Shown here in pieces: positions 10,177 through 57,666 of a stretch of 64,000 nucleotides of DNA. The DNA lies in assembly GCA_903879985.1 (NCBI GenBank), contig CAIRNR010000004.1, positions 96,762-160,761 of the forward strand, read 5' to 3'. This DNA comes from an uncultured candidate division WWE3 bacterium (GTDB taxonomy: Bacteria; Patescibacteriota; WWE3; UBA101185; UBA10185). The notes under the pieces were generated by a model that saw nothing but the letters and a program-made list of their open reading frames with translations, was not told where the DNA came from and did no database searches. The position numbers and the translations under genes were made by a program. Every line of letters begins with the position of its first letter. Position 1 is the first letter of the stretch.

Positions 10177-10806
10177 GTGGCAAAGAAACAAAAATTTGAC
10201 TTCTTGTATTTTGATATTGGGAAGACGCTTTTTAATTACGATAACAGTATCGAGCGCATTTCCTCCAAACTGGGTATGGATCCCATCGTGTGCCAGAAGC
10301 TTTGGGAAATTGCTAACCCCGAAATGTATTTGGGGCATATGACCATGGCAACCTTTGAAAAATCTCTCACGGCTGTCTCCAAATACAAAGGCCCTGATTT
10401 TGACTTTATGGGACTCTGGATGGAGGGTTACACTTGTTTCCCTGGTATGTACCAGCTTCTTGTAGAGCTCACGGCGCATTATCGCATGGGCGTAATCAGC
10501 AACCTTTACGACGGGCAATTCAAAAAAGCAGAGGAAATGGATTTGCTTCCTGTAATAAATTGGGACGCACGAATTTTCTCACACGCCGCCCATATTGCCA
10601 AACCGGACACGCTTCTTTTCGAAATCGCGGAAATACGTGCACGGATCAAAACCAAAACCGATTTGTCACCAAATCGGATTTTGCTTGTGGATGACACTTT
10701 ACAAAACATTCGTGCTGCGCAAAACAGAGGATGGCAAGTTTATTTATTTAACCCTGATTATCCCGACGCCTGCGCTAGCGAGCTGAAAGAAATGCTACTT
10801 CCGTAA
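10177..10806 (+). CDS. HAD-superfamily hydrolase
   Basis: HAD motif I FDIGKT (DxG..T) near the N-terminus and motif IV LVDDTLQNIRAAQNRG. G+C looks slightly higher than in the neighbouring genes. Confidence 0.6.
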   Translation: MAKKQKFDFLYFDIGKTLFNYDNSIERISSKLGMDPIVCQKLWEIANPEMYLGHMTMATFEKSLTAVSKYKGPDFDFMGLWMEGYTCFPGMYQLLVELTAHYRMGVISNLYDGQFKKAEEMDLLPVINWDARIFSHAAHIAKPDTLLFEIAEIRARIKTKTDLSPNRILLVDDTLQNIRAAQNRGWQVYLFNPDYPDACASELKEMLLP

Positions 10807-22938: not shown

Positions 22939-24042
22939 CTAGTTAATTTGATCAAAGACCAGAGATTTATCCAAGTTTTTAGGATCCCTAATAAACGCTA
23001 TGGCCTCAGTTGTGCTTAAAATAGGAATTAAATATTTTTCACGTTCATCTAGGGCAACTCGTGGACAAAGTGTTGAAACTAAAATATCAAAATCTGTGCT
23101 ATTAATCGAATCAGAGTTAAAGAAATCTACCAGCACTATATCTGTTATGTATCCGCCTTTTTCATATTCTTTTTGAAGCTTTAATAATGATTCCATGCGA
23201 GATTGCCCAAACTTATTGCTGATTATAAAACCAACCTTTTTAGCTTTTTTAAGCTGCTGTTTGAGCGCTGTTAGTTTTGTTCTGTGTAGCTTCAGAAGTT
23301 TTTTATACTCATAAATATTCGTATCTCCTGACACCGGATCAAAGCATATAACATCTTTATGGGTAGCTAAAGACACAGGTAAAGCGTGAAAACCTCCGCC
23401 TTCAAACATTACAAACACGTCTACTTTGTCCATAACTTTTGTGGCCGAAGATGGATTACATCCTAAAACTTGACCTGCAAATCCAACGCGATCAGTACCT
23501 TTACCAACGAAAACATTTATACCTGCTGCGGTTAAAGCTTTTTTAGCTATTGGAACATTTTTAATATATTGAACTGAGCTTATTAATCCAATGTTTTCAA
23601 TTTTATTTTTACTTAAGTAAGCCACAGCTTTTGTAATTTGATCGTCGATACCGATTTTCATGTATAAAGGTACATAAACAACTTTAAATTTCTTTGGGAG
23701 AATTCTATTACTAATAGCAACGTTTCCAAAGTGAATTATTTTATTAATGCCTAATGTCTCGAATTGATAGTACTTAATGTCGCAAGCACCAAAGCAAGTG
23801 TCACCGGATAATATTATCTTTGTATTAAGAGATTTTTCCAGGTATGCGATTAAATCGTGTGAAAACTTTTTTAATCCTTCAGGGATTTCTAAGCCTACTA
23901 ATGCATCTTTTACAGTACCAAGCTCGGTTTTAATTCTATCTATTTCTAGTTCGTATTTGTCTAGGAAATCCTCAAAACTCTCGTAGTCGGGATGTAAACG
24001 ATTAACAAAAGGCTTAGAAGTATGATGATAAGGCTCAATCAT
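22939..24042 (-). CDS. Dph2-like (diphthamide-synthase-family / 3-amino-3-carboxypropyl transferase-like) protein, tentative
   Basis: ILSGDTCFGACDIKYY resembles the GD(V/T)xYGACC signature of the Dph1/Dph2 non-canonical radical-SAM family. Three spaced Cys (C83/C87, C195, C233) over about 360 aa fit its three-domain layout. The attribution is from memory of the Pfam signature only. Confidence 0.3.
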   Translation of the reverse strand: MIEPYHHTSKPFVNRLHPDYESFEDFLDKYELEIDRIKTELGTVKDALVGLEIPEGLKKFSHDLIAYLEKSLNTKIILSGDTCFGACDIKYYQFETLGINKIIHFGNVAISNRILPKKFKVVYVPLYMKIGIDDQITKAVAYLSKNKIENIGLISSVQYIKNVPIAKKALTAAGINVFVGKGTDRVGFAGQVLGCNPSSATKVMDKVDVFVMFEGGGFHALPVSLATHKDVICFDPVSGDTNIYEYKKLLKLHRTKLTALKQQLKKAKKVGFIISNKFGQSRMESLLKLQKEYEKGGYITDIVLVDFFNSDSINSTDFDILVSTLCPRVALDEREKYLIPILSTTEAIAFIRDPKNLDKSLVFDQIN

Positions 24043-34895: not shown

Positions 34896-34980
34896 AAAGG
34901 TGAAAACGCAGGCACATAGTTATTTGTGCGGGATAGAATTTTTTAGGTTCTAGTTTTCACATCTCCCATTTAAAACATAT

Positions 34981-35397
34981 TTAGGCTTTATTGGTGATGT
35001 TAGCCAAGAAATCCAGGTACCACTTTTGTAACTCGTTTCCCTGGGCATCTTTACCTGAAAACAAGGCTGTGTTGGCAACGTCAGCTAATTGCTTAACGCT
35101 GTCGGGATTGTTACGATCGAATGTGTCCGGGTCGTATCCAAGCGCACTGAACAATCTTCGCTGGGCCGTGGCGTCGAGTGTAACTTTGCCGGGTTTTATG
35201 GTTACGCCCTCAAACTGACATTCAGGTTTAAAACCATGTTCTGCGAGCCAACTAAGAGCCTGTTGAATTTTGTTGGCCTGCGTTACACCAATGATTCCCT
35301 CATTTTGATCCCTAACGATAACCGCGGCACAAATGGAACAAGCCATCTGTTCCATGAGCATAGGATTAACGCGTTGTCCTACAAGTATTTGGTACAT
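34981..35397 (-). CDS. hypothetical protein (GC-elevated islet)
   Basis: ATG at 35397 with an AAAGGAG SD. The ORF track's TTG-initiated extension is an overcall. Composition is visibly more GC-rich than the flanking genes. Confidence 0.4.
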   Translation of the reverse strand: MYQILVGQRVNPMLMEQMACSICAAVIVRDQNEGIIGVTQANKIQQALSWLAEHGFKPECQFEGVTIKPGKVTLDATAQRRLFSALGYDPDTFDRNNPDSVKQLADVANTALFSGKDAQGNELQKWYLDFLANITNKA

Positions 35398-35603
35398 CTT
35401 GCGCTCCTTTAACCTGCAATAACTTTTGCGTTTGGAAAGCCATGTTCCTTGAGCCAGGCGATTGCTTTTGCCGGTTCTTTGGTTTCGACAATCATTGTAC
35501 CGGTATCCGAATTTGTGATGCGCGTATAACGTTGAGCGCAGCAGCGAATACAGCAGACATAAGCGTAGGAAGTTTTCCTCCAGCCTCAATGACTACTTCG
35601 TCT
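35398..35603 (-). pseudogene. frameshifted small gene remnant
   Basis: Two short overlapping frames (MNEDEVVIEAGGKLPTLMSAVFAAALNVIRASQIRIPVQ* and MIVETKEPAKAIAWLKEHGFPNAKVIAG*) joined at an ATGA overlap. Looks like one gene split by a frameshift. Confidence 0.3.
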
Positions 35604-35837
35604 TCATTCATAACGAACCCCGTTTCTGGAAACCATATTTGCCGTTAAGCCGTTAGCCAAGAACCAATTTTCTGCCGTCTCGATGCTTTTAGCATAAAAC
35701 GAAATCGTTCTTGCGCCGGCGTGTTGAAAGATTGCACCTCTTTCCACAACAAGCGCAAAAGCCTTGAGCTCTTCATTTGAGAGCATGCGATTAAGCGAAA
35801 ACACAAATAAAAGCTTTCGTGTTGCTTTTTTAGCCAT
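35604..35837 (-). CDS. hypothetical small protein (GC-elevated islet)
   Basis: 77-aa ORF, first in the islet's small-gene string. Confidence 0.35.
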   Translation of the reverse strand: MAKKATRKLLFVFSLNRMLSNEELKAFALVVERGAIFQHAGARTISFYAKSIETAENWFLANGLTANMVSRNGVRYE

Positions 35838-35899
35838 TTACTCCTCCTTATATTTATAAGATTTTACGAGATTATACTACTTGGGTTACAAAAAGTTTA

Positions 35900-35922
35900 T
35901 CTGGTGCGCCTGGAGGGAATCG
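35900..35922. repeat. 23-bp direct repeat copy of the tRNA-Arg 3' end (att-like)
   Basis: TCTGGTGCGCCTGGAGGGAATCG is identical to 36042..36064, which is the T-loop 3' half, acceptor 3' strand and CCA of tRNA-Arg. The copies are separated by a 119-bp GC-rich spacer. Confidence 0.6.
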
Positions 35923-36043
35923 GTCACCGGTTCTCGCTTGCTAGCTCGTCCGTCGACCCCGCCTCAGTCGCCTTCGCTCCTTGCGGCTTTCTCATCCCCT
36001 GGCGAAGACAGCTAGCTACCACCTTCGGTGATATCTACCTGTC

Positions 36044-36119
36044 TGGTGCGCCTGGAGGGAATCGAACCCCCAATGACTTGTTCCGAAGACAAGTGCCTTA
36101 TCCGTTAGGCCACAGGCGC
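36044..36119 (-). tRNA. tRNA-Arg (anticodon UCG)
   Basis: GCGCCTGTGGCCTAACGGATAAGGCACTTGTCTTCGGAACAAGTCATTGGGGGTTCGATTCCCTCCAGGCGCACCA. Confidence 0.8.
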
Positions 36120-36202
36120 ATAATTTAAATTACATACTAACTAACGTCACCATTATACACGTCAAACTAACACGCTAGCTACATACATGCTAAAATAATG
36201 CC

Positions 36203-45939: not shown

Positions 45940-46359
45940 CTATTCTTGAGGCAGTAGCTCCAAAACCTCAGCTATATTCATCCATTTTTCAGTTTTCGGA
46001 TTGTAGTACGCCAGATATGCACAGCCATTGTTGAATGAAACCAGGTCTGCGTGTGAGTAGGCCTCGCCGTATACAATTTTGCCCATTCTGCGACAATCGT
46101 GACGCTTTGCTGCCTCCGGGCTTTTAAAAACATTCACAAGCACGTATGGGCGATTATCGTTTTCAAAACGCTCGGCACGAATATAAATCGGTTCGCCACT
46201 GCGCCGACGAATCAAGTGGCCATCATATGAATGGACTCTGCCACATTTTGCGCAAGGAAATACCGTGGTACAGCTCATGCAACCTGTTTGCAACGCGGCG
46301 CTTATGGTAAAATCAATCAAGCCCTCGCACTGCGCGACCCTACACTTAACAGCAGGCAT
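45940..46359 (-). CDS. Cys4 zinc-ribbon protein, paralogue B (GC-elevated islet)
   Basis: ATG 46359 with an AAGGAG SD. KCRVAQCEGLIDF..CAKCGRVH, then a C-terminal domain aligning with the upstream paralogue. Confidence 0.45.
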   Translation of the reverse strand: MPAVKCRVAQCEGLIDFTISAALQTGCMSCTTVFPCAKCGRVHSYDGHLIRRRSGEPIYIRAERFENDNRPYVLVNVFKSPEAAKRHDCRRMGKIVYGEAYSHADLVSFNNGCAYLAYYNPKTEKWMNIAEVLELLPQE

Positions 46360-46373
46360 TTTTTGCTCCTTTT

Positions 46374-46775
46374 TTACACCACATCTTTGAATACCAGTAC
46401 GGCGATATCTTTTGAAACCCACGTATTATTCGCGGGATTAAAATATCCGGCCATCTGGCTATTGGTAGCAAACAGCAACAGTTTGCTATGGGTATGCGAC
46501 TCGCCTACAACCTTGCCCAGCTTAGTATTGTGGACCATTGCAGCTTGCTCAGTTTCAAAAAGCCACATAACAATAGCAGGGCCGTTCTCTGGAACCAGCT
46601 TTTCACCACGAAGATATAACATCTTTCCTTGGCTATCAAAGGCAGGACTATCATCGACAATCCTATGTAGCCGGCCGCATTTTGAACAGGGATGTAAAGA
46701 TTGCATCCCATATGAATACGTGATCGCAGTGTCCAGAAGACCATTGCAACCAAAAACTTTGCAACTCCGTAACAT
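46374..46775 (-). CDS. Cys4 zinc-ribbon protein, paralogue A (GC-elevated islet)
   Basis: ATG 46775 with an AGGAGA SD. SCKVFGCNGLLDT..CSKCGRLH. About 30% identical to paralogue B across its length. Confidence 0.45.
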   Translation of the reverse strand: MLRSCKVFGCNGLLDTAITYSYGMQSLHPCSKCGRLHRIVDDSPAFDSQGKMLYLRGEKLVPENGPAIVMWLFETEQAAMVHNTKLGKVVGESHTHSKLLLFATNSQMAGYFNPANNTWVSKDIAVLVFKDVV

Positions 46776-46973
46776 TTTTTCTCCTTTCACTAGATTTCTT
46801 TTACGGCATTCTAGTTTAAAGTGAATCTGTCGTCAAATAAGCAAATACTTACCTTGAAAACTAACCAATATCCTGCCATAATGAACGTGACTCACAAGGA
46901 GAGCCGATCCCAACCAACTAACAAAAATAAACAACATTGATAAACATAAATTATGTTGTACTATCGGCCCACC

Positions 46974-57219: not shown

Positions 57220-57666
57220 TTATGGGCAATACACAGGGTCTCCCGGTTTCGAAATCTTGTCCAAATAGGCGGCAACCTCCTCAGGACTTAAAATCGAGAT
57301 TATATAGATGACCGATTTACCTTGAGTTAACGAGCGCGTAACCCTTGCTTTTACATAGATTTTTTCCGCGTTCTTCATAGCACCTGACCAAACACCCAGG
57401 AACATTCTCGGATAAGTTATATCGGCATTGCCATGAACAAAGTCTGTGTATTCCACAGGTGTCGCACTGGCAAAACCAAAAGCGTCAAACTGTACGTCCG
57501 TGAGGTGCAATACAACAAAAGCTGGTTGCACATAACATTTGGGTAAATTGCTGGATGCAAATACGTCGTCCCATAAACCGTAAATACCCCCACCGACAAA
57601 AACTAAGACACCAATAAGTATCAAAACCAACGCGCCCATTACGAGTTTTTCCGAAAACCGTGCCAT
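57220..57666 (-). CDS. hypothetical membrane-anchored protein
   Basis: N-terminal TM helix. Confidence 0.4.
   Translation of the reverse strand: MARFSEKLVMGALVLILIGVLVFVGGGIYGLWDDVFASSNLPKCYVQPAFVVLHLTDVQFDAFGFASATPVEYTDFVHGNADITYPRMFLGVWSGAMKNAEKIYVKARVTRSLTQGKSVIYIISILSPEEVAAYLDKISKPGDPVYCP

Follow-up and report, generated by a model that had tools for sequence, protein, structure and literature searches.

Behind the tRNA-Arg(UCG) gene in a 64-kb stretch of DNA from an uncultured candidate division WWE3 bacterium (the window, to whose positions all coordinates below refer), the 3′ end of the tRNA is found a second time, separated from the first by a 119-bp spacer. This spacer together with the distal 23-mer is probably one intact copy of a small, non-coding, structured element that is linked to tRNA genes and built like the RtT RNA of Escherichia coli. 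The element (35902–36041, minus strand), which consists of the spacer and the distal repeat and begins 3 nt past the 3′ end of the tRNA, belongs to a family with an element length of about 105–155 nt and more than 100 copies in metagenome contigs of low guanine plus cytosine (GC) content. L-numbers such as L088 are labels of the loci with which the window is compared.

The tRNA-Arg(UCG) gene itself is intact and encodes its CCA (36044–36119, minus strand; ARAGORN, and the Rfam tRNA model at 66.2 bits). Its last 21 nt and 2 nt of trailer make up the proximal copy of an exact repeat, TCTGGTGCGCCTGGAGGGAATCG (36042–36064, minus strand), which in the orientation of the tRNA runs from C56 in the T-loop through the CCA to two trailer bases. 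The distal copy, C56 to CCA plus GA, lies on the same strand at 35900–35922. The 23-mer has only these two exact occurrences in the window, with 0.00 matches expected from dinucleotide shuffles, and no third copy with three or fewer mismatches was found there. The spacer (35923–36041) has a GC content of 0.605, which places it in the top 0.1% of 119-nt windows where the mean of the 64 kb is 0.367, and no credible open reading frame (ORF) was found within it. Repeat search and windowed GC thus bear out what an earlier note on this DNA had described here, namely the exact 23-bp repeat, the GC-rich 119-bp spacer, and a GC-elevated islet beyond it. Palindromes that the note had quoted from the spacer are also present, but they belong to different hairpins, are not partners, and do not correspond to helices conserved in the family. 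As the same arrangement is found, base for base, in contigs of several independent samples from ENA, JGI, and Logan, an assembly artefact is excluded.

A motif scan of JGI metagenome contigs for GGGGTCGACGG-N12-35-AACCGGTGAC returned at least 118 loci, of which those at high GC match by chance in coding DNA. Some 60 distinct low-GC instances place the motif 45–125 nt downstream of a tRNA gene, on its strand, and directly ahead of a copy of the last 21 nt of that same tRNA. Those copies that have a conserved gene order come from candidate division WWE3. The host tRNAs represent at least 12 identities (Arg, Gly, Gln, Ser, Pro, Lys, Leu, Val, Ile, Tyr, Glu, and Trp) and at least 27 anticodons, and the family is not confined to tRNA genes: in one case a transfer-messenger RNA (tmRNA) gene called by ARAGORN (L211:6730–7271) has a regular copy behind it, with the final 21 nt of the tmRNA forming the end of this copy, and the same tmRNA 3′ end with the element recurs at L107:230–408, where ARAGORN called no gene. 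The boundaries of the repeat are similarly regular. Its 5′ boundary is C56 in 52 of 55 cases; the modal length of 21 nt is seen in 27 of the 55, with an extension of 1–9 nt past the 3′ end in another 20. Where the CCA is not encoded, the copy reproduces the genomic trailer, so that it derives from the gene rather than from the mature tRNA. In some loci the distal copies have decayed. Tandem doubles behind a single tRNA are found at L095:1783–2072 (and also in L178), L102:58–308, and L169:4759–5027; the two units of the L095 tandem, behind one tRNA-Gly, have near-identical cores but unlike 5′ hairpins and unlike internal pairing segments.

A covariance model built from 47 copies (R1) identifies 110 copies in 99 loci, with up to three within 3.6 kb. 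Among these is a copy behind the tRNA-Leu(gag) of L092 that was missed by the search pattern, was not used in training, and scores 78.7 bits; independent copies range from 44 to 110 bits. The core in the window is matched over its full length at 80.8 bits, a score to be read with the fact that this copy was in the training alignment, and it is the only copy that the model finds in the 64 kb. Solo copies that have a tRNA-like 3′ end, with no upstream tRNA gene detected in the locus examined, are seen in L101, L135, L162, L191, L204, and L206.

Other spacers of unrelated type have also been seen behind tRNA genes. At L036:870–1057 (minus strand), a tRNA-Trp is followed by a 112-nt spacer and a 15-nt copy that starts in the T-stem. 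In L137, an extra unit of about 200 nt ending in an 18-nt copy lies between tRNA-Ser(tga) and the R1 match at 1362–1464, upstream of the regular element. With at least these two other types of spacer, tRNA-linked elements of such design seem to come in several families. In the literature on Patescibacteria, WWE3, and tRNA-linked elements, and in searches with the motif strings, no description of the family was found; as far as these searches reach, an RtT-like family of tRNA-linked structured elements in Patescibacteria has not been described previously.

Read in the sense of the tRNA, each element has the same order of parts. The CCA of the tRNA is followed by an optional hairpin, often flanked by runs of A or U, then by a short linker, an internal segment complementary to the tRNA from C56 to about C65, and the junction strand (G)AAUG; next come helix P2 carrying hairpin Pa, the sequence GGG, helix P3 carrying hairpin Pb, and, with no intervening base, the copy of the tRNA 3′ end. 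In the window, all on the minus strand, the predicted 5′ hairpin CAGGUAGAUAUCACC-GAA-GGUGGUAGCUAGCUGUC, which lacks a U-run, occupies 36007–36041, and the conserved core delimited by model R1, a three-way junction that includes the distal tRNA copy, occupies 35902–36006. Within the core, the 5′ strand of helix P1, CCAGGGGAUGAG, at 35991–36002, is the complement of the first bases of the distal tRNA copy and contains the junction motif GAUGAGAA; its assignment comes from columns 5–16 of alignment A2, from pair counts, from covariation with the local tRNA, and from the consensus of the Rfam RtT model, RF00391. P2, of 3 bp, and the Pa hairpin, of the GAGCGAAGGCGAC type with a G(N)A / GA internal loop, span 35961–35987 (column pairs 23-47 and 32-39), and P3 (GUCGACGG / CCGGUGAC, one G.U pair included), capped by the Pb hairpin with its AGCA loop, spans 35923–35957 (Pb column pairs). 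The part of the core that is not tRNA-derived terminates in ...GGUGAC directly against C56 of the tRNA copy, of which the first 8–10 nt or so form the 3′ strand of P1 and the remainder a single-stranded ...CACCA tail.

The 5′ hairpins vary independently of the cores they precede. A hairpin GAUAUCACC-loop-GGUGGUAGC, with a loop of 3–4 nt, also occurs behind other tRNAs in L101, L167, L180, L199, and L200, and L105 and L109 differ from each other solely by the hairpin, so that hairpin and core are shuffled as separate units. The hairpins look like small modules in their own right, or terminator cassettes, that recombine with the core. A second type, GUCCGCAGGAUUUGCGGAC, likewise recurs before cores.

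The fold is supported by extensive covariation. In alignment A2 the structure pairs 83% of cells, and the covariation score of 0.294 compares with 0.127 ± 0.007 in shuffles, none of 500 of which reaches it, and with 0.05–0.095 in a control in which the partners were slid. Changes on both sides are seen in 22 of 33 pairs. The individual column pairs illustrate how freely the bases have been exchanged: 23-47 in P2 is CG in 19 copies, GC in 18, and UA in 8; 32-39 in Pa is GC in 34 and AU in 9; in Pb, 65-73 is UA in 22 and CG in 20, and 62-76 is GC in 21, UA in 13, and GA in 12. P1 opposite T-loop position 59 is UA in 22, CG in 13, UG in 4, GC in 3, and AU in 2. The core of P1 (columns 10–16) is paired in 37–45 of the 47 copies except at two tandem-G.A positions, with the whole of P1 paired at 70%. 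P3 carries no covariation information, being preset by the search pattern; P2, Pa, P3, and Pb are also predicted independently by RNAalifold. In P1, Pa, and Pb, tandem G.A pairs are seen in alternation with Watson-Crick pairs. Outside P1, there are 61 G.A against 2 C.U and 59 G.U against 8 A.C combinations, an excess which identifies the tRNA-sense strand as the one that is folded. Moreover, the 5′ strand of P1 pairs with its own tRNA copy better than with the copies of other elements (5.47 against 4.44 of 8 positions; 0 of 5000 permutations). Taken at the level of sequence comparison, these data show a tRNA-sense strand that folds into a three-way junction in which P1 closes the internal segment with C56 to about C65, leaving the acceptor 3′ strand and the CCA as a tail.

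Several other identities for these sequences were tried and discarded. The internal segment is not a duplicated 5′ half of the T-arm with a 5-bp T-loop duplication, as tRNA-Leu rules this out: the segment there is GGACUUG, the reverse complement of CAAGUCC, and not UUCAAGU. A hammerhead ribozyme, suggested by GAUGAG, is ruled out by the UUCGAA that about half of the family has at this place. A second tRNA, a tmRNA, or a signal recognition particle RNA is ruled out by the lack of acceptor/T-arm geometry and of any Rfam match; among the curated Rfam models only tRNA passes, the best other being tmRNA_permuted at 13.9 bits (E = 0.57).

The system that the element most recalls, RtT RNA, has for decades been a peculiarity of the E. 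coli tyrT operon; neither its origin nor its mechanism is, to our knowledge, understood. In strain MG1655 (L213, 1286200–1287800), there are three 178-bp units behind tyrV and a fourth between tyrT and tyrV, each ending in AAUCCUUCCCCCACCACCA, a copy of the 3′ end of tRNA-Tyr, and these units score 133–138 bits with RF00391. Across a collection of E. coli genomes, there are 1–14 RtT units per genome (median 3), and 18 places on plasmids. The annotated small RNA RttR begins 8 nt behind tyrV and ends with the CCA of the first copy, which is exactly one unit, so that its ends are those expected from tRNA-type processing. In the consensus of RF00391, GgGaaGG-A-U forms an outer helix with the first bases of the tRNA copy, and there follow GAUGAGAA and an unpaired ccaCCACCA end. 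Where this consensus has GgGaaGGAUGAGAA, the window reads GGGGAUGAGAAAG, and GAGAA stands at that place in 22 of 47 family members.

The two systems thus share a location directly downstream of a tRNA gene and on its strand, a unit that ends in a copy of the 3′-terminal 19–21 nt or so of that tRNA with its CCA, an outer helix in which an internal segment, with GAUGAGAA behind it, pairs with the first bases of the tRNA copy, an unpaired CCA tail, and tandem arrays of variable copy number. They differ in that the long-range helix of RF00391 encloses two hairpins and a long unpaired 3′ segment whereas the window family is a compact three-way junction, and in that the copy starts at about A59 in RtT but at C56 in the window family. 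In addition, only tRNA-Tyr is involved in the E. coli K-12 locus examined, as opposed to 12 or more tRNA identities and tmRNA, and the window element has no tpr-like ORF. The element is therefore RtT-like and not a member of RF00391.

Comparison with related genomes shows how occupancy varies. The MacB-type permease that flanks the locus has its matches among WWE3 (Patescibacteria) proteins at 52–62% identity, with one relative at 79%. A genome-collection scan with RlmN, whose listed matches were dominated by a common peptide pattern, gave only distant relatives. The closest available relative, L088/L089, at 79%, shares the gene order of the region: permease, small ORF, tRNA-Arg(UCG), a variable slot, rlmN, tRNA-Lys, a peptidyl-prolyl isomerase, and a HAD protein. 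In L088 the orthologous tRNA-Arg(UCG) is followed directly by AT-rich DNA and a DedA/VTT gene, without repeat, spacer, or islet, and the covariance model finds nothing there. The more distant WWE3 loci L091 and L092 do have, behind tRNA-Arg(UCG), a GC-rich spacer of about 123 nt whose 3′ half is clearly homologous to that of the window; after it stands a copy of the 3′ end of the local tRNA, which differs from that of the window. At tRNA-Leu(gag), L092 is filled and its near relative L091 is empty (CCA, five bases, and the start codon of the next gene), which implies that gain or loss of the element takes little evolutionary time. In a published WWE3 assembly, a scaffold gap given as a run of N (L090:7834–7944) falls exactly inside an element behind tRNA-Arg. 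Repeats of this kind are probably a cause of breaks at tRNA loci when genomes are assembled from short reads.

How such an element might be expressed and spread can be outlined by analogy. A candidate extended −10 promoter, TGTATAAT, is read from the sequence about 35 nt upstream of tRNA-Arg (36152–36159, minus strand); a consensus promoter scan requiring a −35 hexamer did not report it. This putative −10 would drive tRNA-Arg and, via read-through, the element. The scan predicts no promoter between tRNA-Arg and the element, and this, with the 5′ hairpin of the window lacking a U-run, fits read-through from tRNA-Arg. As with RttR, the element would be transcribed with the tRNA and released by tRNA 3′-end processing as an RNA of about 140 nt with a tRNA-like ...CACCA end. 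Spread between tRNA genes would involve an insertion that duplicates the target from C56 to just past the CCA; a duplication of this extent would leave the tRNA intact at any host, whereas chimeric tRNAs would arise at new hosts if the element brought along a fixed tRNA end. The match of the internal segment to its target may either guide insertion or have arisen later by compensatory change, and a mobilizing enzyme would act in trans.

Direct repeats that run from the T-loop to the 3′ end of a tRNA gene are the classical signature of tRNA-targeted integrases, and the earlier note had taken the 23-mers for attL and attR, left behind by an integrase of the tyrosine or serine type, the 119 bp for a decayed element, and the islet for a stump of its cargo. 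Like the remnants of tRNA- or tmRNA-targeted integrative elements (att remnants, of the cis-mobilizable element type), the locus has such repeats flanking inserted DNA, an intact tRNA, and an insertion that is absent from a relative, L088, and the islet is foreign in composition. A tRNA-targeted insertion is thus upheld to the extent that the repeat flanks DNA absent from L088; its interpretation as an integrase scar is not, since the spacer represents a complete copy from a conserved structured family whose members lie behind dozens of different tRNA genes. The same unit of about 105–155 nt with the same fold recurs at about 60 independent loci, which random decay would not give, and its repeat matches the local tRNA across 12 or more identities, which a single attP cannot do. 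Only 119 bp separate the repeats, and what they enclose has an RNA-type fold rather than recombinase arm sites. Neither an integrase nor a transposase, reverse transcriptase, or Cas1 domain was found by Pfam among the 54 ORFs of the window, and when the ORFs within 4 kb of all copies were clustered, no recurrent protein family emerged, the largest cluster being a spurious antisense ORF across the element. In viral contigs of IMG/VR the core motif has one chance match only, in a coding region of 70% GC; exact scans of viral contigs found nothing with a 30-mer from the spacer and, with the 21-nt tRNA end, only an unrelated phage tRNA-Arg(UCU) array. Located outside the repeats, the islet accompanies no other copy. 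The part of the 23-mer from C56 to about C65 instead forms the 3′ strand of the closing helix of an RNA-like element, a structured-RNA context that the note had itself set against an att scar. The integrase explanation is largely refuted and has become very improbable.

Another explanation is a miniature transposable element acting purely at the level of DNA. A transposase supplied in trans, casposase-like or of the HUH type, would recognize folded single-stranded DNA and cut the target 21 bp apart, with no role for RNA. The family resembles miniature inverted-repeat transposable elements and other small repeats (Rickettsia palindromic elements, repetitive extragenic palindromes, and bacterial interspersed mosaic elements) in being small, non-coding, multi-copy, distinct in GC, polymorphic in occupancy, and presumably dependent on an enzyme in trans, and it is flanked by a target duplication of which one boundary is fixed at C56 and the other ragged; sheared G.A and G.T pairs are possible in single-stranded DNA too. 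Casposons, which are Cas1-solo transposons, target the 3′ ends of tRNA genes with unusually long target duplications. These are elements of kilobases, however, with Cas1, PolB, terminal inverted repeats, and duplications of 14–15 bp, whereas the window element has no Cas1 match, no terminal inverted repeats, and a duplication of 21 bp or more. Nor is any transposase seen, and the sole inverted repeat of the family is that between the internal segment and the flanking tRNA copy. Its target (T-loop to 3′ end) is strict, its orientation is always that of the tRNA, and the flank made by its duplication of about 21 bp serves as a strand of the closing helix, features unlike those of the small repeats. 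As the unit also ends exactly like processed E. coli RttR and as an internal loop of the G(N)A / GA kind and hairpins capped by tetraloops are features typically seen in RNA, a purely DNA-level element is rather unlikely.

The covariation, which implies selection on the fold, could also be explained if the element were an RNA of benefit to the host (a tRNA 3′-end mimic, a decoy, or a processing signal) that is inherited vertically at each tRNA locus and not mobile, its copies being homogenized by gene conversion and occasionally lost through recombination between the repeats. E. coli RtT, fixed at tyrT with a variable copy number, offers a parallel, and several WWE3 lineages with a MacB permease that shares only about 58% identity with that of the window carry the element at the same tRNA-Arg(UCG) locus. 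Occupation of at least 27 anticodon types and of tmRNA, tandem copies at one tRNA with different hairpins and different P1 solutions, solo copies without a tRNA, decayed distal copies, and patchy occupancy between near relatives all speak against this, and we regard it as decidedly improbable. A more speculative proposal is a self-targeting mobile RNA or DNA, in which the internal segment, by pairing with the T-loop and T-stem region of a tRNA gene, would guide insertion to the position right behind that gene, the 3′ end of the target then joining the fold. Such an element may be a retroposon comparable to short interspersed elements, riding on tRNA transcription and processing, or a guide-directed module with an enzyme in trans, and E. 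coli RtT would be related to it as a domesticated or fossil form. In no copy does a truncation reach into the core, and the shortest keep the whole junction, so that retroposition with 5′ truncation is not supported; as a whole we consider this proposal unlikely.

An intact copy of an RtT-like structured element remains the probable interpretation, and a number of observations count against it. A search of 5 kb with RF00391 at E ≤ 1, and one of 251 nt at E ≤ 10, gave no match to the window element, the gathering threshold of the family being 45 bits, and model R1 scores the E. coli units at 3–7 bits, in the correct register with large insertions; the design shared with RtT could be convergent rather than homologous. 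The search pattern fixed P3, and the sample is in consequence biased to one subfamily. Many copies have a terminator-like hairpin and U-run between tRNA and core that could stop co-transcription. The absence of the element from L088 and L091 could reflect precise deletion between direct repeats rather than an ancestral empty site, and near-identical cores at different tRNAs (Arg in L092, Gly in L095) could be due to gene conversion rather than recent movement. Finally, it is from sequences that we infer the transcription, processing, and mobility of the element.

The islet that the earlier note had taken for a cargo stump lies beyond the distal repeat, outside the repeat pair. Its compositional anomaly is confirmed: GC over 34981–35837 is 0.455 against 0.367 (z = 2.9, top 0.4% of equal-sized windows), and in its 138-aa ORF the GC content at third codon positions (GC3) is 0.475 against 0.298 ± 0.047 in 56 other ORFs (z = 3.8). 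Also as described, it consists of three co-oriented small ORFs, all on the minus strand, with AAGGAG(G) Shine-Dalgarno sites, the middle one split by a frameshift (sequence, JGI gene calls, and translation). Nearest the repeat is an orphan of 77 aa with a strong AAGGAGG site (ORF 1, 35604–35837); the split ORF 2 (35409–35611) follows as 39 aa (35492–35611) and 28 aa (35409–35495), and the orphan ORF 3, of 138 aa, occupies 34981–35397. ORFs 2 and 3 share an A..WL(A/K)EHGF stretch (local alignment z = 6), to neither of which ORF 1 is demonstrably related. Among 5.8 billion protein clusters the sole match of ORF 3 is itself, and HMMER gave only weak, spurious matches to repeat proteins among 1.84 billion representatives; its AlphaFold2 (AF2) model, with a predicted local distance difference test score (pLDDT) of 51, is unusable. 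The islet ORFs have no Pfam, PHROG, or PADLOC match, ORF 3 has no phage or plasmid match by tblastn, and no islet homologue was found next to any other copy of the element. Given its place outside the repeats, the lack of homologues at other copies, and the lack of database matches, nothing links the islet to the repeat as cargo. The slot between tRNA-Arg and rlmN is variable, with DedA/VTT in L088 and a 67-aa ORF and VIT1 in L091 and L092, and the islet is probably a separate, horizontally acquired trio of orphan genes in this slot.

Elsewhere in the window, ORFs at 10177–10806 (plus strand) and 57220–57666 (minus strand) have no Pfam match and a GC3 as elevated as that of the islet (0.49 and 0.44, respectively); they may be other foreign genes. 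A region of elevated GC content (0.41–0.44) at 45940–46824 has overlapping ORFs on both strands with no Pfam match and no Rfam match at E ≤ 1. The ORF at 22939–24042 (minus strand) matches the Pfam family Diphthamide_syn (PF01866, E = 4e-55), which is unusual in a bacterium, the family being associated with archaea and eukaryotes.

That the RtT design exists in Patescibacteria as a large, covarying family turns a curiosity of a single locus into a class that is open to comparative study, and a structured RNA that goes undetected by Rfam is now provided with an alignment and a covariance model. For the reading of these genomes, the element would explain scaffold gaps at tRNA loci in their assemblies, and duplications of tRNA 3′ ends are by themselves not evidence of integrase-mediated islands.

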